Of a DNA stretch of 54,113 nt, positions 7,913 to 44,340 are shown one piece after another. The position numbers and the translations under genes are program-made. Source of the DNA: Omnitrophica bacterium GWA2_41_15. GTDB taxonomy: Bacteria > Omnitrophota > Gorgyraeia > Gygaellales > Profunditerraquicolaceae. Within the stretch, counting starts at the first letter, position 1. Every line of letters starts with the position of its first letter. The notes beneath the pieces were generated by a model. The model worked only from the letters and a program-made list of their open reading frames with translations, did no database searches and was not told where the DNA came from. Location of the stretch: contig CAKKQZ010000052.1 in the NCBI GenBank assembly GCA_919902445.1, positions 1-54,113 of the forward strand, written 5' to 3'.

Positions 7913-8188
7913 TTATTTTACTTCTACAACACAATTGTGTGTGCCAAAACTATTAACTACGCAGGAATTGCAGCGCGGGTCATTCAGCCAGGTTCCGTCA
8001 ACAAGAAACTTATATTCGTACCTCCCTGGTTTCAGGCTGACCTTTGTCTTCCAGTTGCCTTTTGAATCTCTCTTTGCAGAGAGGTCCTTTGTGTTCCAGT
8101 TATTAAAACTGCCGGTGAGTGTAACTTTTTTTGCCTGCGGAGCAAAAAACTTAAATTCCGTGACTTTTTTGCCAGATAAGTTTACCAT
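7913..8188 (-). CDS. CBM48/AMPK-beta-like glycogen-binding domain protein
   Basis: Motifs GSFNNWN and GRYEYKFLVDGTW. Start moved to MVNLSGKK (ATG 8188), which is preceded by AAGGAGGGGG. The longer ORF (to 8224) runs into a repeat hairpin. Confidence 0.7.
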   Translation of the reverse strand: MVNLSGKKVTEFKFFAPQAKKVTLTGSFNNWNTKDLSAKRDSKGNWKTKVSLKPGRYEYKFLVDGTWLNDPRCNSCVVNSFGTHNCVVEVK

Positions 8189-8198
8189 ATCCCCCTCC

Positions 8199-8347
8199 TT
8201 AATGAACGCATAATTTACGAACACGAAGTGTGAGTAAATTATATGCGCGAATTAATCCCGCATCTTGCTTTCCTAAGGTAACGGCGGGAGAAATTCAAGC
8301 AAAACTTACGCAACATTAGTAAACGTAAGTTATTTGTGCGAATTACG
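8199..8347 (-). repeat. intergenic hairpin cassette (modules A, C, D-like) forming the 5' UTR of the CBM48 gene
   Basis: A: 8199-8253, GCATAATTTAC...GTAAATTATATGC flanked by TTAAT. C: CCCGC...GCGGG, 8254-8297. Third hairpin AAACTTACG...CGTAAGTT, 8299-8344. Confidence 0.8.
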
Positions 8348-9288: not shown

Positions 9289-10071
9289 CTATTTACGGCA
9301 GGAGTGGGCTATACCGCGTTGCGACTTTTTTATAAAATTGATGAGGTAAGCGATTTCCTGAGTAGGCTCAATCTCTTTCTCAATTTTTTCAAGGGAGTGT
9401 TTTATAGTAAGGCCTTCGTTGAGTAATGCCTTGAAAGCGCGGCCAAGCGAATCTATAGAATCTTTGGAAACTTTTTGCCTCCTTAATCCGACGATATTTA
9501 ATCCGTATACGCGCGCAGGATGGCCATCGCAGGTAGAATACGGAGGAATGTCCTGGGTAACCTTAGAGCATCCTCCGATAATAGAAAGCGTGCCCACCCT
9601 GACAAACTGATGTATGGCAACCAGCCCGCCGACTACAGCTTTGTCTTCGATAGTTACATGGCCCGCAAGCGTGCCGTTGTTGGCAATAACGCAGTTACTG
9701 CCTACAACGCAATCATGCGCAATATGCGAATAGGCCATAAAAAGATTATCGTTTCCGATAACTGTCCTTGAGCCCTCTTCTGTGCCGGGGTTAAATGTGC
9801 AATATTCACGGATTATATTTCCGCTTCCTATATCTAAAAAGACTTTTTCTCCCTTATATTTTAAATCCTGAGTCCGCGACCCAATTACTGCCCCGGTAAA
9901 AATTTCACAGCCGCGCCCTACAGTGGTATTACCCTCTATTAAACAATAGGCGCCGATCTTTGTCTGGCCGCCTATTGCAACAGTGTCACTTATAATAGAG
10001 TAAGGGCCGACTCTGACATCATCGGCCAATTTTGCTTTTTTAGAAACTATTGCTGTCGGGTGAACCTGCAT
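9289..10071 (-). CDS. lpxA: acyl-ACP--UDP-GlcNAc O-acyltransferase
   Basis: 260 aa. Left-handed beta-helix hexapeptide repeats plus a helical C-terminal domain. lpx cluster context. Confidence 0.9.
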   Translation of the reverse strand: MQVHPTAIVSKKAKLADDVRVGPYSIISDTVAIGGQTKIGAYCLIEGNTTVGRGCEIFTGAVIGSRTQDLKYKGEKVFLDIGSGNIIREYCTFNPGTEEGSRTVIGNDNLFMAYSHIAHDCVVGSNCVIANNGTLAGHVTIEDKAVVGGLVAIHQFVRVGTLSIIGGCSKVTQDIPPYSTCDGHPARVYGLNIVGLRRQKVSKDSIDSLGRAFKALLNEGLTIKHSLEKIEKEIEPTQEIAYLINFIKKSQRGIAHSCRK

Positions 10072-11461: not shown

Positions 11462-12487
11462 TTACTTACCTTCTAATTCCTGTATTTTATTCTTAAGTTC
11501 TTTTACCTGCTCATATAACTTCGGAAGATTTTGCACGCATGCATTTATGCGCCTTGCTTTATCATGCTGCCTTGCCGGGTAACCGGATACAATGGTATTA
11601 GGAGGAACCGACTTTGTGACTCCGCCTTGCGCAGCTACTACTGCCCCGTCTCCTATTGTTATGTGCCCGACTATCCCTGCCTGCCCGGCTAAGGTCACGT
11701 TATTTCCTATAATGGTGCTTCCTGAGATTCCTGCCTGCGCTACAATAATAGAGTTCTCGCCAATTACTACATTATGGGCAATCTGGACAAGGTTATCTAT
11801 TTTCGTGCCGCGGCCGATAACTGTTTTATCAAAACGCGCGCGGTCAATAGTTACATTGGCGCCTATCTCTACCTCGTCTCCTATTTCTACTATTCCTATT
11901 TGGGGGATCTTATGATGCAGCCCATTTATCGTAACAAAACCAAAACCATCCGAACCTATCACTGTGCCGCTGTGTATGATTACGCGGCTTCCTATAATTA
12001 CGCGTTCGCGGATAGATACATTCGGGTAAACAAGAGTATCATTTCCTATTTTTGTATGGTGCCCTATAAAACATCCTGAATAAATTATCGACTTATCCCC
12101 TATCGCAACATCATCTTCAATAACCACATAGGGCCCGATAGCGGCACCCTTACCCAGCGATACATTTTTACCTATCAGCGCACTCGGGTGCACCCCTTTA
12201 GGATGCTTAGCCTCATTAGGCGCAGCAAGAGAGATTATCTTAGCGAATGCCAAAGACGGATTCTCCGTGCGGATAGTCGGCTTAGGAACTCTCCCTGCAT
12301 CGCGTGAAGTTATTATTGCGGAGGCGCGTGTAGTATCTATAAGAGAGGAATACTTCGGATTTGCCAGAAAAGTAATGTCTCCTTCGGCTGCCTCTTTTAT
12401 CCCCGCAACTCCGGTAATGACTGTGCTCCCATCGCCGACAACCTCCCCTTCTATAAAATCTGCTATTTCCTTAAGGGTCTTGCGCAT
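11462..12487 (-). CDS. lpxD: UDP-3-O-acylglucosamine N-acyltransferase
   Basis: Hexapeptide-repeat protein with the LpxD N-terminal domain. Start uncertain: MRKTLKE at 12487, or 12499 per the ORF track. No clear SD. Confidence 0.88.
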   Translation of the reverse strand: MRKTLKEIADFIEGEVVGDGSTVITGVAGIKEAAEGDITFLANPKYSSLIDTTRASAIITSRDAGRVPKPTIRTENPSLAFAKIISLAAPNEAKHPKGVHPSALIGKNVSLGKGAAIGPYVVIEDDVAIGDKSIIYSGCFIGHHTKIGNDTLVYPNVSIRERVIIGSRVIIHSGTVIGSDGFGFVTINGLHHKIPQIGIVEIGDEVEIGANVTIDRARFDKTVIGRGTKIDNLVQIAHNVVIGENSIIVAQAGISGSTIIGNNVTLAGQAGIVGHITIGDGAVVAAQGGVTKSVPPNTIVSGYPARQHDKARRINACVQNLPKLYEQVKELKNKIQELEGK

Positions 12488-12488
12488 A

Positions 12489-12639
12489 TTAATGAACACT
12501 TGACTTACGAATACGCTTAGTATGAGTAAGTCAATGTGTGAATTAATCCCCCCTGCATTCTTGCAGAATGCAAGAAGGGGGGATAAGTTCGGCCAGATAA
12601 CTTATGTAGGCTAAAAGCCTCCATAAGTTATGGCCTCAC
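12489..12639 (-). repeat. stop-to-start hairpin cassette (modules D-C-A) between skp and lpxD
   Basis: A 12489-12544 (ACACTTGACTTAC...GTAAGTCAATGTGT), C 12545-12585 (CCCCCC...GGGGGG), D 12586-12639 (GGCCAGATAACTTATG...CATAAGTTATGGCC). Abuts the skp stop codon. Confidence 0.85.
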
Positions 12640-13399: not shown

Positions 13400-15847
13400 T
13401 TAGAATCCATGGCTTGCGCTGAAGTGGAATCTTCCGCTGTTTTTATCATCTTCGCCAGGGGCTTTATTTAAGGGTATGCCGTAATCAAGCATTATCGGGC
13501 CGATGGGGGTTTTAAGCCGAAGCCCCAAACCAATACCTGATTTAAAACCGCCTGTTTCCTTAACACCGTTTGCGTCTTCCGACGAACCGAGATCGCCTAA
13601 CTTTGACCACACATTTCCTACGTCATAAAATGCAGCCACTTTAAGAAAGTTGAATAAAGGATACGTATACTCGATATTGCCGATAGCCATAGAATTTCCG
13701 CCTAACGGGTCCTTTGACGCGGGGTCAATAGGGCCTAATGACCTTTCCTCGTAACCTCTTACCGAGGAAGCGCCGCCTGCAAAGAATCTTTCGTATATCG
13801 GTATACGCTCGGTATTTGCGTAGGCAGCGGCTAAACCTACCCTCCCCCTTATCTCCAGGACAGAATTTAAAGGCATTGGGAAATAATGCGAAGCGCGGCC
13901 GAAAAATTTCCAGAAATCCTTATCCCCTGCTAACGGCCCGCCGGCCCATTGGACTGAACCATTAAAGTAATCGCCTTTTCTTGGGTCAAAGACATTATCG
14001 CGGCTGTCAAAGGTAAGGCCGGGAGAAATACTGCTGACTGTATTCTTCCCAACTTCCTGCTTTAAGTCATTTGTGGCATTATCAGTTATGTTAGAGATAT
14101 CAATCTCTTCAATCTTGTACATCAAATCAGACCTTAAATATTCGCTTATTTCTTTGCCCAGGCGAAGGTCCCCCCCGGTAATTTTTTCATCATAACCGTA
14201 ACCAACATCGGAATCCCTTTTACGCTCGCGCCTGTAGGCGTCAAAACCAAAAGATACAGGATAATCAAAAATCCAGGGCTCTGTAAAACTTAAATCAAAG
14301 CCGCTGCTGACAGTTCCGAATGAAGCGCGGAATTTCAAATTTTGCCCGCCTCCGGTAAAATAAGGAAAATTCTTCCAATCAAAATTCTTCTGCTCTACCT
14401 CTACAAACCCTACGAACTGGTCAACCGTACTGTAACCTCCGCCAAAGCTAAAAGACCCGGTCTTTGTTTCCTTCACCTCAACTATCAAATCTTTTTTATC
14501 AGGCAGATTTGTATCCTCGGTATCGTAACTGACCTCTTCAAAGAACCCTAAGTTCTGCAGCCTCTCCTTGCTGCGGCGAAGTTTTTCTCCGTCAAATTTT
14601 TCTCCGGGACGAATCCTTAATTCACGGCGTATAATCACGTCTTTGGTCTTTACGTTCCCCCTTATCTTAACCTTAGCCACATAAGCAACTTCATTTTCAG
14701 TAATGTTGTAGGCGATATCCACGCGCCCGGTCTGCGAGTTAACAGAAGTTGTATCCTGAATTTGGGCAGATATGTATCCTTTATCAAAATACAGGCCATG
14801 GATACTGGCGGCATCGCTCTTTAGCGCTTCATCGCTGAAAACCTTACCCGGGATACACTCTTTAAGCGTAGCCAGTATCTCCTTCTCAGGAATTTCCTTA
14901 TTACCTTGTATAGTTACATTGCCGGCCAGATATTTTTTACCCTCCTGTATCTTTATGTAGATGTATAAAGAATAGGTTTTTTTGGCATCCGGCTTGACTT
15001 CATAATTAACCACTGCGTCGGTAAAGCCGCCTCTGGTGTAGAAAGACTTTATACGCTCAATATCCTCCTTTAATACCTCATCCTTCAGGACCCCTGCGTT
15101 AAAAATCCATGCGCGTTTTGTCTTCAGTAATTTTAGGATGCGTTTTTTTGGAAACGCCTTATTCCCTTCTACAGCTATATCTTTAATCCTTACCTTCTTG
15201 CCCTCCAGGGCACTAAATTCTACTTTTGCTTTATTAGTTTCTTTGTTTAGGTCGGCCTTGTAAGTTATCTGCGCTTGGCTAAAGCCCATTTTTTCATATA
15301 ACTTCTCAAGCGTGCGCACATCTTCGGTTAAATTCGGATAATCCAGATACTGCGTTTCTTTGGATTTAAGCATCCCTTTTAGTTTCTCATCCTTCATGGT
15401 AATGCGGTACATTCCGGAAAAACCAATCTTTTCTATGATGGGCCTTTCTACAACCGTGAGGATGATTTTTACGCCGTCTTTGTAATTTTGCGTATCTATT
15501 TTTATGTCGCTAAAATACCCCAGAAGGTAAAGCCGCTTTAAATCATCGCTAACAACATTCTCCTGATAAGGGCTGCCTATGCGGGTCTTCATCTTCGAAA
15601 CAATAGTATTGGTGCTTATGTTCTTATTCCCCTTTACATCTATTCCGGTAACTAATTTTAAGCCTTCGGGTGTTTGCGCTTCGATGGATTCCTGCGATTT
15701 TACTTCGGAGGCAACAGGGGAAGATTCGTCTGGTGGGGATTGCGCGAATACGCTTATACTGCTCCCTAATATTAAAAAAATTGAGAAAAACGTGGAAATT
15801 TTCTTACGCATTGTTGTTATTATATATGAATTGCCCGAGGTAAGCAA
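13400..15847 (-). CDS. bamA: outer-membrane protein assembly factor BamA
   Basis: 815 aa. Signal peptide, POTRA repeats, C-terminal beta-barrel ending ...SASHGF. Start is either TTG at 15847 (AGGAG 8 nt upstream) or ATG at 15811. Confidence 0.92.
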   Translation of the reverse strand: MLTSGNSYIITTMRKKISTFFSIFLILGSSISVFAQSPPDESSPVASEVKSQESIEAQTPEGLKLVTGIDVKGNKNISTNTIVSKMKTRIGSPYQENVVSDDLKRLYLLGYFSDIKIDTQNYKDGVKIILTVVERPIIEKIGFSGMYRITMKDEKLKGMLKSKETQYLDYPNLTEDVRTLEKLYEKMGFSQAQITYKADLNKETNKAKVEFSALEGKKVRIKDIAVEGNKAFPKKRILKLLKTKRAWIFNAGVLKDEVLKEDIERIKSFYTRGGFTDAVVNYEVKPDAKKTYSLYIYIKIQEGKKYLAGNVTIQGNKEIPEKEILATLKECIPGKVFSDEALKSDAASIHGLYFDKGYISAQIQDTTSVNSQTGRVDIAYNITENEVAYVAKVKIRGNVKTKDVIIRRELRIRPGEKFDGEKLRRSKERLQNLGFFEEVSYDTEDTNLPDKKDLIVEVKETKTGSFSFGGGYSTVDQFVGFVEVEQKNFDWKNFPYFTGGGQNLKFRASFGTVSSGFDLSFTEPWIFDYPVSFGFDAYRRERKRDSDVGYGYDEKITGGDLRLGKEISEYLRSDLMYKIEEIDISNITDNATNDLKQEVGKNTVSSISPGLTFDSRDNVFDPRKGDYFNGSVQWAGGPLAGDKDFWKFFGRASHYFPMPLNSVLEIRGRVGLAAAYANTERIPIYERFFAGGASSVRGYEERSLGPIDPASKDPLGGNSMAIGNIEYTYPLFNFLKVAAFYDVGNVWSKLGDLGSSEDANGVKETGGFKSGIGLGLRLKTPIGPIMLDYGIPLNKAPGEDDKNSGRFHFSASHGF

Positions 15848-15858
15848 GAAAAAAACTC

Positions 15859-16220
15859 CTATTCAATGCGGGCGATGTTTTCAAATCTTGTATATTCTTT
15901 GATAAATGAGCGCATAACTTATGGAACGATAGTGAACATAAGTTATTACGCGAATTAATCCTTGACACGTAAGGTTCAAATCTTAATGTCATCGAATTCG
16001 TGTCAAGCATAACCTTGTTACTCAATGCGGGCGATGTTTTCAAACCTTGTATATTCTTTGATAAATGAGCGCATAACTTATGGAATGATAGTAAACATAA
16101 GTTATTGCGCGAATTTTGAGCACACAAAGTTTCTATTAGCGAAATCCCGCGTAAGCGGGGACCCTTGACACGTAAGATTCAAATCTTAATGTCGTCGAAT
16201 TCGTGTCAAGCATAACCTTG
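15859..16220 (-). repeat. two tandem units, each a 52-bp copy of the dnaB 3' end plus hairpin modules
   Basis: dnaB tail copies at 15859-15910 and 16018-16069 match 16221-16272 at 51/52 and 50/52. Interleaved modules: A (15911-15956, 16070-16114), B (16116-16160), E (15962-16017, 16164-16220). Confidence 0.9.
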
Positions 16221-17588
16221 CTACTCAATGCGGGCGATGTTTTCAAATCTTGTATATTCTTTGATAAATGAGAGTTTCAAGGCGCCTACCGGCCCGTTAC
16301 GTTGTTTGGCAATAATAACTTCCGCCACCCCCTGATTGTCGGGCGTCGGATTATAATACTCTTCCCTTAATATCAAGACAACTACATCCGCATCCTGCTC
16401 TATTGCGCCGGATTCCCTTAAATCCGATAGCTGCGGCCGATGGTCTGTGCGCGATTCTACCGCGCGGGATAACTGGCTTATTGCTATCACCGGAATACTT
16501 AATTCGCGCGCAAGCGCCTTGAGTGAGCGCGAAATCTCAGAGATCTCCTGCTGCCTGTTCTCTGTATTATTACTTGAGCCGCTCATTAACTGCATGTAAT
16601 CCAGTATAATCAGTTTTATATCCTGGTGCGCTTTAAGGCGCCTGGCTTTAGCGCGTAATTGCATTACCGTTATACCTGCTGAATCGTCGATAAATATGGG
16701 GGCTTCGGAAAGTTTTCCCGCTGCCGCAGTAAGGCGCGGCCAGTCAGAAACAGCAAGGTAGCCCGTCCTGACCTTATGGGCGTCAACCCTGGCATGAGAA
16801 CAAAGCATCCTCTGAACAAGCTGCTCCTTGGCCATCTCTAAACTAAAAATCGCTAAGGGCACCTTTTCTATTACTCCGGCGTATTCTGCTATTCCCAGCG
16901 CAAAAGCGCTTTTGCCCATTGAGGGCCTTCCGGCAACAACCACAAGGTCCGAATTCTGCAGCCCGGCTGTCTTTATATCAAAATCAATATAGCCCGTCGG
17001 AATACCGGTAACATGCGCCTTCTTCTGATAAAGCCTGTCTATGGACTCAATACTATCCTTAACAATTTCTTTCAGGTGCAAGGTTGTGCCTGAACTTTTT
17101 CTATCGCTAACTTCAAATATAAATTTTTCGGCGCTATCAACCACCTCGTTGACATTGCCTTCACTTTCATAACATAAAGAAACAATCCGCGTGGCATTAT
17201 TTATCAGGGTCCTTAAGATACTTTTTTCCTTGACGATGCTTGAGTAGTGGCTGATATTTGCCGCTGTAGGAACAGAGTTTGCAAGCGCTGTTAAAAAACT
17301 TGGCCCCCCAACTTCCTCCAGCGTCTCCTCTTTTTTTAGCGCATCCGTCAAAGTGATCAGGTCAACCGGCTTATTGGCGCTGTAAAGGCTTATGATTGCC
17401 TCAAATATTTTACGGTGGCTGTCTTTGTAAAAAGAATCCCTGTCCAGCATTTCACTGGCAACTGAAATAGCATCTTCATCGAGCAGCATGGAACCTAATA
17501 CCGCCATTTCAGCTTCCAGGTTTTGCGGAGGAATTTTGTCTAATGATACTGAGCCGAGCATATTTTGCATTATTTCTTTACAATCCAA
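16221..17588 (-). CDS. dnaB: replicative DNA helicase
   Basis: 455 aa. Walker A GRPSMGKSAF and DnaB N- and C-terminal domains. Confidence 0.95.
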   Translation of the reverse strand: MDCKEIMQNMLGSVSLDKIPPQNLEAEMAVLGSMLLDEDAISVASEMLDRDSFYKDSHRKIFEAIISLYSANKPVDLITLTDALKKEETLEEVGGPSFLTALANSVPTAANISHYSSIVKEKSILRTLINNATRIVSLCYESEGNVNEVVDSAEKFIFEVSDRKSSGTTLHLKEIVKDSIESIDRLYQKKAHVTGIPTGYIDFDIKTAGLQNSDLVVVAGRPSMGKSAFALGIAEYAGVIEKVPLAIFSLEMAKEQLVQRMLCSHARVDAHKVRTGYLAVSDWPRLTAAAGKLSEAPIFIDDSAGITVMQLRAKARRLKAHQDIKLIILDYMQLMSGSSNNTENRQQEISEISRSLKALARELSIPVIAISQLSRAVESRTDHRPQLSDLRESGAIEQDADVVVLILREEYYNPTPDNQGVAEVIIAKQRNGPVGALKLSFIKEYTRFENIARIE

Positions 17589-18013
17589 ACCTTAATTTTG
17601 GCAAGGACTTCCGGGTGCAGCCTTACCGGTACCTCGTAAATCCCTAAAGCCTTAATCGGTTCATCCAGCATAATGGAATTCTTATTTATCTCAAAGCCCT
17701 CTTCTTTTAATGCCGCTGCCAGATCAATAACGCCTATACTTCCGTATAGCTTATCTTCTTCCTGCGTAAGCGCTTGGAGAGTTAAAGAGATGCCCTCTAA
17801 TCTCTCCTTTTGCTCCTCTGCCTCATCTTGAATTTTTTCCTGCTGGAGATTCTTTTTAATCTTTTCCTGCTCCAGCCGTTTTAAATTTTCAGGAGTCAAA
17901 GGAATAGCGAGTTTATTAGGTATAAGAAAATTACGGGCAAACCCATCTTTCACCTTTACAACTGCCCCGGCTTTCCCTATCCTATCCACATCTTTATTTA
18001 ATATGACTTCCAT
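17570..18013 (-). CDS. rplI: 50S ribosomal protein L9
   Basis: 147 aa. MEVILNKDVDRIGKAGAVVKVKDGFARNFLIP. Confidence 0.93.
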   Translation of the reverse strand: MEVILNKDVDRIGKAGAVVKVKDGFARNFLIPNKLAIPLTPENLKRLEQEKIKKNLQQEKIQDEAEEQKERLEGISLTLQALTQEEDKLYGSIGVIDLAAALKEEGFEINKNSIMLDEPIKALGIYEVPVRLHPEVLAKIKVWIVKK

Positions 18014-18023
18014 AATACACCTC

Positions 18024-18228
18024 TTAATGAGCCCACAACTTACGGAACGTCAGTGAACGTAAGTTGTTTGGGCGAATTATTGAGCACCTAAAGTTTCTAT
18101 TAGCGAAATCCCGCGTAAGCGGGGATCCCCACATCTTGTTTCCAAGCAAACAGCGGGATAAGTTCGGACAGATAAGTTATGTCGTTTAGATTTCTTATTA
18201 TATAGTTCTCCATAACTTATGTCCTTAC
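18024..18228 (-). repeat. full stop-to-start hairpin cassette (modules D-C-B-A) between rpsR and rplI
   Basis: A 18024-18078, B 18080-18124, C 18126-18158, D 18159-18228. It fills the whole spacer between the rpsR stop codon and the rplI SD. Confidence 0.85.
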
Positions 18229-18525
18229 TTAACGCGTATAAGGAATAAGTGAAAGGAACCTTGCCTTTTTTATTGCCTCGGCAATACGCCTCTCGTGTTT
18301 GGCGCAATTTCCTGAGATACGGCTTGAAACAATCTTTCCGCGCTCGGTAATAAAGGCCTCAAGCCTTTTTACATCCTTATAATCGATAGACTTCACCTTA
18401 TCCTCCGCGCAGAAACGGCAGAATCTTTTTCTGGCAGGCAGATGATCGCGCTTCTTAATAATTATCTTACCTCTGGCACCGGCTTTAGTGCCCGCTTTAG
18501 TAAATGTTTTTGTCTTAACTTTCAT
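18229..18525 (-). CDS. rpsR: 30S ribosomal protein S18
   Basis: 98 aa. [30 protein letters not shown] signature. Confidence 0.92.
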
Positions 18526-20740: not shown

Positions 20741-20839
20741 AATAATAAAACTCTCCTTAATGAGCCCACAACTTACGGAACGTTAGTTGTTTGGGCGAAT
20801 TAATCCCAATAACAATCTAATCGGTATTTCTAACTTAGG

Positions 20840-23774: not shown

Positions 23775-23987
23775 AGCTTAAACGCAGCTAATCACACCCT
23801 TTTAAAACATCCAAACTGTTTGGCTGGGATGTATGGATTCCGCTTCGCTAGAACCAGTCGTCCTCGCTTACGCTCTTCCTCCCCATAGGGGCTCTGCCCC
23901 TCTGGCGTCCCGCTTTCAGCGGGACTGTCACCCCGAAAGCGTGGGGACGGTCTCCCCACACCCCTTAGGTTCTCATCTAGATAACTG

Positions 23988-24058
23988 CTGGGACGTATGG
24001 ATTCGAACCATAATAGCGAGACCCAAATTCTCGTGTCCTACCATTGGACGACATCCCA
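23988..24058 (-). tRNA. tRNA-Gln (anticodon TTG)
   Basis: Reverse complement TGGGATGTCGTCCAATGGTAGGACACGAGAATTTGGGTCTCG..., anticodon loop ATTTGGG, T-arm TATGGTTCGAATCCATA. CCA is not encoded. Confidence 0.85.
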
Positions 24059-24092
24059 AAATTTATAAGCTGTGGCGTCCATACCCACCATT

Positions 24093-24159: not shown

Positions 24160-24183
24160 GACGACATCCCAAAAATTTGGACA

Positions 24184-28493: not shown

Positions 28494-29378
28494 CTAATAA
28501 ATAACTTTATTCAAAGGGTATTCTATAATCCCTTGAGCGCCTGCATTTTTTAACTGCGGGATCAACACGCGCACAATTTTTTCGTCTATCACTGTCTCTA
28601 TGGCATACCAGCCATCCTCGGAAAGTGAGGAAACAGTAGGTTTTTTCAATGCAGGCAGGATAGCAGCCACTTTCTTCAAGTCATTCTTCCTGACATTCAT
28701 TTTTAAACCTACCTTTTCTTCGGCAGATATAGCTCCTTTTAAAAGCAGCGCGATCTGCTCCATCTTGGATTTTTTCCAGCTATTTCTAAAGGCTTGCTTA
28801 TTTGCGATAAACTGGGTAGTAGACTCGGCAATAGTGGCGATCTCCGCTAATTTATTCGCCATCAAGGAGCGGCCAGTTTCAGTCAACTCCACAATTGCAT
28901 CAACCAATCCAGCGCTTACCTTTACTTCGGTTGCCCCCCAGCTGAATTCTACTTCAACCTTTACTTTATTTTCTTTAAAATATTCCCTTGTAACGTTGAC
29001 TAATTCTGTGGCTATGCGCTTCCCTTCTAAATCCTTTACAGACTTCATCCCGGAGTCCTGAGGCACAGCCAGCACCCAACGCACTTTATTTAAACCCTGT
29101 TTGGCATAAGCTAAATCTGTTACCCTCACTACATCTGATTTATTCTCCAGTATCCAGTCGTTACCGGTAATCCCGCAGTCTAAGGCACCGTCCTGCACAT
29201 ACCTTGACATCTCTTGCGCCCGTAGTAATACCGGTTCTATCTCGCGGTCATCTATCGACGGAAAATAAGAACGCTCGCTGGATAAAGAAACATTAAATCC
29301 CGCTTTCCTGAATATCTTAAAGGTAGACTCTTGAAGGCTCCCCTTTGGCAAGCCTAATTTAAGCACTTTGTTTGGCAT
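28494..29378 (-). CDS. hisG: ATP phosphoribosyltransferase (long form)
   Basis: About 294 aa from [17 protein letters not shown]. The ORF-track start at 29393 is a GTG inside a repeat stem. Confidence 0.88.
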
Positions 29379-29380
29379 TT

Positions 29381-29567
29381 TTAATGAGCCCACAACTTAC
29401 GGAACGACAGTGAACGTAAGTTGTTTGGGCGAATTATTGAGCACATAAAGTTTCTATTAGCGAAATCCCGCGTAAGCGGGGCTCCCGCATCTTGTTTTCC
29501 AAGGAAACAGCGGGAGAGGTTCAACCGCATAACTTATGGAGCGTAAACATAAGTTATCGGCACGGAC
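29381..29567 (-). repeat. hairpin cassette (modules D-C-B-A) forming the hisG 5' UTR
   Basis: A 29381-29435, B 29437-29481, C 29482-29518, D 29519-29567. Confidence 0.85.
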
Positions 29568-44010: not shown

Positions 44011-44232
44011 TTATAGCGCGATTATCTCCTTTATCTCTGGAACCTCCTGCCTTAAAACCCTTTCTACCCCTGTCTTTAAAGTCATCTGAGACATCGGGCA
44101 GCATCCGCAGGTGCCGGTAAGTTTTAACTTCACTACTCCATCGGGAGTAACCTCCACCAATTCCACATTTCCGCCATCAGCCATAAGCATGGGGCGTATC
44201 TTATCAAGCGCTTTCTCTACTCTTTCTCTCAT
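44011..44232 (-). CDS. NifU C-terminal-like (Nfu) Fe-S scaffold domain protein
   Basis: 73 aa from MRERVEK (ATG 44232 after AAGGAGAGAG). ADGGNVELV and GTCGCCPMS motifs. Confidence 0.85.
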
Positions 44233-44242
44233 CGCTCTCTCC

Positions 44243-44340
44243 TTAATGAGCACATAACTTACGAACACGATAGTGTGAGTAAGTTATTGTGCGAATTAAT
44301 CCCGCATCTTGCCTTCCAAGGGAACAGCGGGAGAAGTTCA
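44243..44340 (-). repeat. hairpin cassette (modules C-A) forming the nfu 5' UTR
   Basis: A 44243-44297 (GCACATAACTTAC...GTAAGTTATTGTGC, TTAAT on both flanks). C 44298-44340. Confidence 0.85.

Follow-up and report, generated by a model that had tools for sequence, protein, structure and literature searches.

How can the end of an essential gene be present three times in succession, with hairpins set between the copies, while the gene itself remains intact? This question is raised by the junction of dnaB and bamA in Omnitrophica bacterium GWA2_41_15 (phylum Omnitrophota), which was analysed within positions 1 to 54,113 of contig CAKKQZ010000052.1 (the whole stretch of 54,113 nt, hereafter the window). 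Downstream of dnaB, the last 52 nt of the gene recur twice, separated by cassettes of short hairpin modules, before bamA begins. The array is best seen as a small structure resembling a variable-number tandem repeat (VNTR), derived from illegitimate insertion and duplication of a hairpin cassette of the host. It exposes, with known polarity, a recurrent landing of Omnitrophota cassettes at the ends of essential genes without breaking them.

Structure of the array at the 3' end of dnaB

The dnaB coding sequence (CDS; 16221..17570, minus strand, ATG at 17570, stop codon TAG at 16221-16223) is intact and encodes a 449-aa protein with the Pfam domains DnaB and DnaB_C, for which 120 Omnitrophota homologues were compared; an identical 449-aa protein is encoded on a related contig, L001. 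The 52-nt end of the gene, or tail (CTCATTTATCAAAGAATATACAAGATTTGAAAACATCGCCCGCATTGAGTAG, 16272..16221, running from CTCATTTATC to CATTGAGTAG in the minus-strand reading), was present three times at ≤3 mismatches, and 100 shuffled sequences gave 0 matches at the same threshold. Pairwise identities among the three copies were 50/52, 51/52 and 49/52. Tail copy 1 (16221..16272, minus) is the functional end of dnaB (..LSFIKEYTRFENIARIE*) and closes with GAG TAG. Tail copy 2 (16018..16069, minus; 50/52) is non-coding, ends in GAG TAA and has hairpin A before it and hairpin E after it. Tail copy 3 (15859..15910, minus; 51/52) has GAA TAG, the ancestral ending, and borders on the native upstream region of bamA, being followed by the spacer GAGTTTTTTTC (15848..15858, minus) and then by TTGCTT of the bamA promoter. 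An earlier note, made from the sequence alone, had placed these copies and assigned the modules between them, and its coordinates, identities (50/52 and 51/52) and module sets (E+B+A and E+A) all proved correct. It had also held that the duplication keeps dnaB intact, in agreement with the 449-aa open reading frame (ORF) and with the last 17 DnaB residues, which are nearly invariant in the 120 homologues.

The segments between the tails, both read on the minus strand, measure 151 nt (16070-16220; unit-1 cassette, E+B+A) and 107 nt (15911-16017; unit-2 cassette, E+A, without B), and can be aligned end to end, barring a 44-nt block (module B) and 5 substitutions. The linker CAAGGTTATG opens both cassettes (16211-16220 in unit 1, 16008-16017 in unit 2) and is followed by hairpin E, whose loop of 29 nt lies between the 9-bp arms CTTGACACG/CGTGTCAAG (arms at 16202-16210 and 16164-16172 in unit 1, and at 15999-16007 and 15961-15969 in unit 2). 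Hairpin A closes both (16062-16115 and 15903-15958), and its final 8 nt (CTCATTTA) double as the first 8 nt of the next tail, i.e. of copy 2 in unit 1 and of copy 3 in unit 2. Module B (44-45 nt; 16116-16160, minus) occurs in unit 1 only, sits precisely at the boundary of E and A, and is 94% identical to copies at 18080-18128 and 29437-29485. Owing to the 44-nt indel, Tandem Repeats Finder gave no report on the array. Among the five tail copies of the window and of L004, a related contig, every difference is synonymous or changes one stop codon into another, which fits functional alleles as their source, or gene conversion.

Some other properties of the array were also considered. The ATG in the 3' arm of A reads in frame into tail copies 2 and 3 (16018-16074 and 15859-15915, minus), giving two 18-codon ORFs (MRSFIKEYTRFENIARIE); that the copies serve as translated mini-ORFs was rejected as the principal interpretation, with no Shine-Dalgarno (SD) sequence present and the ATG buried in a stem. 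Nor was hairpin E retained as a promoter: it contains TTGACA, but the scan passes no -10 at the proper distance. A diversity-generating retroelement was discarded as well, the differences between tails being A/G changes in both directions plus stop-codon changes, with no adenine bias, and none of the window ORFs examined proving to be a reverse transcriptase. The dnaB tail and the loop of E have a 10-nt string, AAGATTTGAA, in common, located in the tail at 16242-16251 and 15880-15889 and in the loop at 16178-16187 and 15975-15984, with an estimated chance probability of roughly 0.2-1%.

Unit number in related contigs

Relatives with zero, one and two units at the dnaB-bamA junction, a comparison that the earlier note had envisaged, were all found. 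Two units are present in the window and in L001, an independent assembly in ENA from Hainich well H51 (Hain_H51 R3); the array is identical in the two, which are separated by 7 single-nucleotide polymorphisms (SNPs) over 11,126 nt. Exactly one unit was found in L004, a contig from well H43, in the order tail(TGA)-E-A-tail(GAATAG)-GAGTTTTTTTC; this unit has the E+A composition of unit 2, and its sequence is an intermediate consensus of the window's units 1 and 2. Zero units were found in 9 related contigs (L002, L003, L125-L131), where the bamA promoter follows 3-30 nt after dnaB, with no cassette and no second tail. Nucleotide identity of dnaB to the window amounts to 96.1% for L004, and to 95.2% and 94.6% for the zero-unit contigs L002 and L003, respectively; L125 and L126-L131 are more distant from the window than these two.

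The ending GAATAG is shared by the distal tail copy and the zero-unit contigs L002, L003 and L126, which bears out the earlier proposal that the distal copy represents the ancestral dnaB-bamA junction. The tails adjacent to E all end in GAG plus a stop codon (TAG, TAA or TGA), and the spacer GAGTTTTTTTC occurs only in the window/L001 and in L004, being absent from the zero-unit relatives. Because zero-, one- and two-unit relatives exist at this junction, the sequences indicate that the order of events is 0 -> 1 -> 2 units and that the array is a recent gain. The locus offers a polarised example, with empty, single and double alleles within one groundwater population, and unit number is usable as a ready strain marker. 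A metagenome scan with the tail pattern returned two contigs only, one of them new, and a BamA-based search for close strains gave no other full-length BamA above 86% identity. When dnaB was searched for a recombination mosaic, no clear block emerged, only a cluster of changes private to L004 in the last 150 nt.

There is hardly any doubt that the array is real, to judge from the assembled contigs, because the same array occurs in L001, 7 SNPs apart from the window, because each tail copy bears SNPs of its own, because B is confined to one unit, and because only tail copy 2, with its private SNP combination of AGG and TAA, has A before it and E after it, a context impossible in a one-unit genome. 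The alternative, that two coexisting one-unit strains, with and without B, were threaded into one two-unit contig, could draw on the low coverage (about 5-6x according to the contig names) with repeats short relative to the reads, and on the breaks of several contigs of this population beside the tRNA-Gln repeats described below; yet with two concordant assemblies, and with a clean one-unit contig (L004) from a separate sample, it is hardly credible.

In the zero-unit contig L002 (4601-4630), the dnaB TAG is followed by CAAGGTTATTCTTGA, which matches the unit start at 14/15 positions, then by 15 unrelated nt (ATAAAAGTTATCC) and then by the bamA -35. This stub may be what is left of a unit since lost, or else a forerunner of the cassette.

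Duplication of other gene ends

A search for further gene ends duplicated around hairpin inserts, as suggested in the earlier note, found several examples, with repeat lengths of 14-21 nt (repeats <14 nt are not detectable by the flanking-repeat scan). Gene-end duplications beside hairpin inserts occur in at least seven metagenome-assembled genomes (MAGs). In the window itself, tRNA-Gln(UUG) (23987-24058, minus) has both ends duplicated across hairpin-rich inserts, by 18 nt at 94% identity each. Its 3' end (23987-24004) is repeated 164 nt downstream (23823-23840), across an insert of about 146 nt, and the distal copy keeps the ancestral base, as at dnaB. Its 5' end (24047-24064), made up of 3 leader nt and nt 1-12, has its second copy 113 nt upstream (24160-24177), directly after the spoVG stop codon and across an insert of about 95 nt; between the two copies lie, in this order, two C-type hairpins, tRNA nt 13-22 and 22 nt of filler. 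The upstream pseudo-copy occupies the position of the tRNA itself in L125 and is split by the two C-type hairpins. Empty sites were found for both sides in L125 and for the 3' side in L124.

Elsewhere, the 5' end of tRNA-Lys is repeated over 16 nt (L045, 1298-1390; empty site in L118), the 5' end of tRNA-Arg over 19 nt in two species, with an A cassette between the copies (L007, 4835-5247; L011, 1329-1554), the 3' end of tRNA-Arg over 21 nt (L007), and the 3' end of tRNA-Glu over 17-20 nt in three copies (L079, 5700-5930). Targets other than tRNA genes were found in L046 (7385-7562; 14 nt) and L090 (4533-4745; 17+ nt). Most cassettes have no flanking repeat, their median best match being equal to that of the shuffled control. 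The recurrent outcome is an essential gene end that is duplicated and not destroyed, as seen within 54 kb for dnaB and both ends of tRNA-Gln, and for tRNA genes elsewhere, and such duplication appears to be widespread in the phylum Omnitrophota. Its recurrence would reflect either a characteristic error of replication or repair to which hairpins give rise, or a hitherto unknown type of insertion that duplicates long stretches of its target. In practice, the pseudo-tRNA and pseudo-gene-end fragments are easily misread, and contigs break at these repeats.

Two observations concern tRNA-Gln in particular. Three independent short-read contigs (L132-L134) end in or near its repeats (window positions about 23840-24045), which suggests that the duplications break assemblies. 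In L124 (95% dnaB nucleotide identity), tRNA-Gln(UUG) at 9789-9860 has another acceptor stem, TGCCCGG.. and not TGGGATG.., and this difference looks like an allele replacement.

Origin of the array

Homology with dnaB starts exactly at CTCATTTA, and the base before it is T in dnaB and G after module A. At the start of the repeat, dnaB and the canonical 3' end of A outside the array (GCTCATTWA) share an overlap of 6-8 nt, CTCATT[TA], which a cut at an arbitrary point would give with a probability of about 4^-6 to 4^-8; the dnaB codons at the junction, CTC-TCA-TTT-A, match the cassette end. The overlap, to which the earlier note had drawn attention, proved genuine and bears on the mechanism. CTCATT arises through a Ser codon, TCA, that is confined to the lineage with gained units (L002 has TCG, and L003 reads CTT TCA), and most DnaB homologues carry Ala or Thr at that position. 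In the A copies of unit 2 and of L004, TTAATTC goes together with TCATTTA; this mismatched class is rare (4 of about 55) and would be expected if the bases after CTCATT come from dnaB. An overlap of 6-8 nt at the sole illegitimate junction is taken as the signature of microhomology-primed joining, and is unexpected for cut-and-fill transposition.

We tentatively favour, at somewhat less than an even chance, an origin in which microhomology-primed template switching, or else illegitimate recombination, brought in a copy of the cassette and copied the gene end anew, after which the unit was amplified by unequal crossing-over. The outcomes are plain: a cassette and a second gene end were gained, a near-identical second unit was added, B was gained in one unit, and dnaB stayed intact. 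In other MAGs, the canonical order of modules is stop-D-linker(GAACTTATC)-C/E-(B)-A-start, and the dnaB unit looks like a truncated canonical cassette with its left end flush with the stop codon. In a first step, a copy of the canonical cassette (linker, E and A; a truncated stop-D-E-A-start) would have been placed right after the dnaB stop by a replication or repair error, with no dedicated element: synthesis or strand exchange running past the end of dnaB would have continued on a cassette and rejoined dnaB 52 nt behind the stop, at CTCATT. The route may have been switching of the type of break-induced replication mediated by microhomology (MMBIR) or fork stalling and template switching (FoSTeS), or else the known mechanism of homology-facilitated illegitimate recombination (HFIR), acting on cassette-bearing and cassette-free alleles. 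The product would be dnaB-tail / E+A / tail / native bamA promoter, the state of L004. Unequal homologous exchange between the two tails would then yield the second unit (window, L001), and the 44-nt B would finally be gained in unit 1 at the E/A boundary, its place elsewhere too. Only rearrangements returning upstream of their point of departure would survive, duplicating rather than deleting the gene end, because outcomes that truncate it would be removed, the last 17 residues of DnaB being nearly invariant. The same survival filter would account for the duplicated tRNA ends beside hairpin inserts, and the extra tails and cassettes would need no function of their own.

This origin is favoured because of the overlap at the junction, the duplication lengths that vary among loci (14-52 nt), the varying junctions of cassette arrays, the filler and interrupted copies at tRNA-Gln, the gain of B, which replaces 3 nt and has no flanking duplication, the tail differences that are only synonymous or stop-to-stop, and the failure to find a recombinase. 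No recombinase or transposase was seen in the units or, by comparison with Pfam, among ten ambiguous window ORFs, the remaining ORFs being housekeeping-like and not scanned; a distant blastn search of phage and plasmid collections with the 414-nt array returned no match. That units 1 and 2 differ only by their 5 substitutions and B supports amplification. Tandem arrays of 2-3 A-ending cassette units without gene ends are common in other MAGs (L018 4500-4775; L047 6130-6450; L117 3670-4090; L120 3795-4105; L122 914-1160; L045 430-725; L094 80-320), with junctions scattered about the 3' end of A, after GTGGG, CTCAT, CTCATT, CTCATTA, CTCATTAA and CTCATTAAAG/GG; these junctions, at seven positions, weaken the idea of a fixed CTCATT cleavage site like those of HUH enzymes or REP-associated tyrosine transposases (RAYTs). 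L047 and L117, two loci of one MAG, have a promoter-like spacer unit in common.

Several observations weigh against this origin. Apart from a 15-nt stub of the linker and the first E bases in L002, no donor of E or the linker was found outside the array in the 54-kb window (≤3 mismatches, 9-mers) or in 130 other Omnitrophota loci of about 1 Mb, and an ectopic or allelic donor must be assumed because the nine zero-unit relatives have no cassette between dnaB and bamA. The left junction (stop|CAAGG) has no demonstrable microhomology. Plain microhomology-mediated tandem duplication (MTD) cannot yield tail-M-tail-bamA, where M is the module set, from a cassette-free ancestor; unequal recombination between CTCATT microhomologies, one of the possibilities named in the earlier note, comes closest to the best explanation, but a plain exchange cannot on its own leave a tail beside bamA. 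In every case the repeats reach only 0-4 nt past the gene end and 12-52 nt into the gene, so that a flush boundary recurs. A core, GGGGTGTGGGG..GTCCCCACGC, is found in three inserts flanked by direct repeats of 17-21 nt at three unrelated targets in three genomes, as in a transposon. Finally, two species with cassettes that cannot be aligned have exactly the same 19-nt tRNA-Arg duplicate, and it counts against this origin because neutral decay after a single random event fails to explain it; the duplicated fragments are more conserved than neutral decay predicts.

These points lend some weight to the alternative that the hairpin cassettes are non-autonomous mobile elements, for which an enzyme nicks the strands 14-52 nt apart and gap filling duplicates the target, hits near an essential gene end surviving since duplication makes the gene whole again. 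At dnaB, empty and filled alleles together look exactly like a target-site duplication, and repeat-flanked inserts at further gene ends (tRNA-Gln, tRNA-Lys, tRNA-Arg, L046, L090) as well as the homologous cores at three unrelated targets agree with it. There are precedents in casposons, which make duplications of 14-15 bp at the 3' ends of tRNA or EF-2 genes, and in the IS1634/IS1549 group of insertion sequences (IS), whose target duplications are long and variable. The long staggered target duplication suggested in the earlier note gained in this way from the other gene-end duplications, but the CTCATT overlap does not sit well with it, cut-and-fill not being expected to leave 6-8 identical nt where A ends and the duplication starts. 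Terminal inverted repeats are lacking: the ends CAAGGTTATG.. and ..AAGTTATGCG are alike in direct orientation, the similarity of the inserted-segment ends CAAGGTTATGC.. / ..AAGTTATGCG is likewise direct and not inverted, and the right end overlaps the target by 6-8 nt. With its 52 nt, the dnaB duplication is much longer than those of 14-21 nt at other sites, although the latter may be the tail of a broad distribution; moreover, most cassettes have no flanking repeat, neither module B nor either of the C hairpins at tRNA-Gln has flanking duplications, array junctions vary, and no transposase was seen among the ten ambiguous window ORFs. On balance enzyme-driven insertion is less likely than the favoured origin, but a strong competitor. 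In its general form, an undescribed Omnitrophota insertion process that sets hairpin cassettes flush at gene boundaries and duplicates 14-52 bp of the target seems rather unlikely; if it existed, it would call for an enzyme acting on hairpins (e.g. Cas1/casposase-like, IS1634-like or HUH-type), essential genes such as dnaB and tRNAs would survive hits at their ends, the dnaB array would be a fresh, polarised footprint of it (0 -> 1 -> 2 units), and the near-perfectly conserved duplicates might be in use, e.g. as pairing partners or processing signals.

Far less probable is the integration of miniature elements, lacking an integrase and carrying an att copy of the gene end, that were stacked by repeated integration in trans in the manner of cis-mobilizable elements (CIMEs). 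The direct repeats do stop exactly at the gene end and leave the gene intact, like attL and attR of islands that target gene ends, the units are tandemly stacked, and tRNA genes are among the targets. This proposal of the earlier note finds little support, however, as neither the units nor the ten ambiguous window ORFs (Pfam) include an integrase, none of the relatives carries an integrase-bearing element at the site (9 related contigs hold only a short spacer between dnaB and bamA), and the cassette is built from modules A, B and E of the intergenic repertoire of the host, of which A is phylum-wide, with no foreign content. Each site (dnaB, tRNA-Gln, -Lys, -Arg, -Glu) has a duplicated sequence of its own, so that recognition of all of them by a single site-specific enzyme would not be feasible, and each tiny element would need to have acquired a gene end of its own. 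Near-identical units point to amplification and not to independent integrations, and a double-stranded circle of 159-203 bp would be a poor substrate for recombination.

Module A and the cassette repertoire

Module A is a hairpin of roughly 60-75 nt, (G)GGATTAATTCGCNCAnAYAACTTAYG-loop-CRTAAGTTRTGNGCTCATTWA. A scan with the motif TAAGTTRTGNGCTCATTWA, taking one genome per species, gave at least 119 stretches; among those listed, 96 came from MAGs labelled Omnitrophota, and most of the remaining matches from MAGs labelled Planctomycet* or unclassified, with a complete hairpin. The stem covaries across 99 copies with a recognisable 5' arm: the variable pair of GCNC/GNGC is G-C in 39, A-T in 38 and C-G in 16 (mismatched in 6), and the Y-R pair is T-A in 73 and C-G in 23 (mismatched in 3). 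The outer stem is TTAAT..ATTAA in 51 copies and TAAAT..ATTTA in 23, with few mismatches; TTAATTC goes with ..TCATTAA in 43 (+8) copies, and TAAATTC with ..TCATTTA in 23. The start of a long ORF lies ≤60 nt downstream of A in 91/134 copies and 0-4 nt downstream in 45/134, often with no SD before the start codon, and a few copies abut tRNA genes.

Module A is a structured element found across the phylum Omnitrophota and absent from Rfam and the searchable literature. Rfam 15 reported only tRNAs over the whole window at gathering thresholds and, for 15800-18300 at E≤10, nothing meaningful for any module; likewise, a literature search on repeats or RNA motifs of Omnitrophota retrieved nothing relevant, and no paper describing hairpin A. 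From its sequence and position, module A is a candidate 5'-leader, processing or stabiliser element. In the window, it precedes at least six other genes, as A, B+A, C+A or D+C+B+A (8186-8255, 12476-12530, 18012-18079, 20744-20802, 29369-29436 and 44230-44302, all minus), and the module sets of the window overall are A alone, B+A, C+A, D+C+B+A, E+A and E+B+A. Hairpins of E type (CCTTGACA...TGTCAAGG) also stand directly upstream of A in other MAGs. Long ORFs in the window are on the minus strand in 57/60 cases, and every A hairpin is oriented as its gene.

Comparison with known systems

The array has its closest parallels in known classes of replication and recombination error. MMBIR is an established mechanism class (PMC2621351), and so is MTD (bioRxiv 10.64898/2026.02.28.708716). 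With MMBIR/FoSTeS, MTD and HFIR, the locus shares a new junction inside a short identity, CTCATT[TA], a templated insertion flanked by a duplication, copy-number change by unequal exchange (0/1/2 units among close relatives), and sister loci with complex variants and filler DNA. It differs from all of them in that the events recur at gene ends beside one family of hairpin modules, and from plain MTD in that the progenitor had no cassette, and was not one segment bounded by two microhomology arms.

Pneumococcal BOX elements, enterobacterial repetitive extragenic palindromes (REP) and bacterial interspersed mosaic elements (BIME), and neisserial intergenic mosaic elements (NIME) and Correia elements are also short intergenic stem-loop modules of varying order and number, commonly in tandem arrays that vary among strains. 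Unlike these, module A covaries across a whole phylum and is fixed right before start codons, and we know of no insertion of such elements that duplicates 14-52 bp of an adjacent gene end. CIMEs and casposons resemble the array in direct repeats made of the target gene end, in the intact gene, in tandem stacking and in tRNA targets, but here no recombinase or casposase was found, the inserts are host intergenic modules of 60-200 bp, and the repeats at different loci are unrelated in sequence and length. The IS1634/IS1549 group likewise has insertions flanked by variable direct repeats of tens of bp; here, in contrast, there is no transposase gene, there are no terminal inverted repeats, and a microhomology overlap is present at one junction. 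Repeats of the mycobacterial interspersed repetitive unit (MIRU) type are VNTRs with intergenic units in operons, 0/1/2 copies among close strains, abutting stop and start signals, whereas the unit described here is a composite of a gene tail and unrelated hairpins and not a homogeneous minisatellite.

The start and promoter of bamA

The CDS of bamA (13400..15811, minus) starts at ATG 15811 and encodes 803 aa, although the ORF finder extends it to TTG 15847. From this ATG the protein opens with a signal peptide, MRKKISTFFSIFLILGSSISVFAQ (MRKKIST...), and its closest homologues, of 803-806 aa, agree with this start. The promoter (15812..15847, minus) comprises a -35 TTGCTT (15842-15847), a 17-nt spacer and a -10 TATAAT (15819-15824), followed by 7 nt to the ATG; the geometry TTGATT-17-TATAAT-7-ATG is kept in L002, L003 and L125-L131 (the -35 in the window being TTGCTT). 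A simple promoter scan misses this -35, since TTGCTT matches at 3/6 positions. The earlier note had read the TAG stop of the distal tail and the following GAG as an AGGAG SD for a TTG start of bamA; that TTG, at 15847, belongs to the -35 hexamer, the start is ATG 15811, and GAGTTTTTTTC is not conserved. With GAGTTTTTTTC confined to the window/L001 and to L004, the supposed SD is judged fortuitous. From the promoter geometry, the bamA mRNA is probably leaderless or nearly so.

Gene callers often extend the bamA ORF into the promoter, producing N-termini such as ..GNSYIITTM. In practical terms, bamA is mis-started and spurious ORFs are called through the array.

The window holds other families of palindromic repeats, unrelated to modules A-E, among them palindromes of GGGACTGTCCCC type and an element of 84 nt whose copies are 80% identical; the repeat pairs are 9204-9287/30089-30172, 28432-28460/54028-54056 and 2197-2234/19040-19077.

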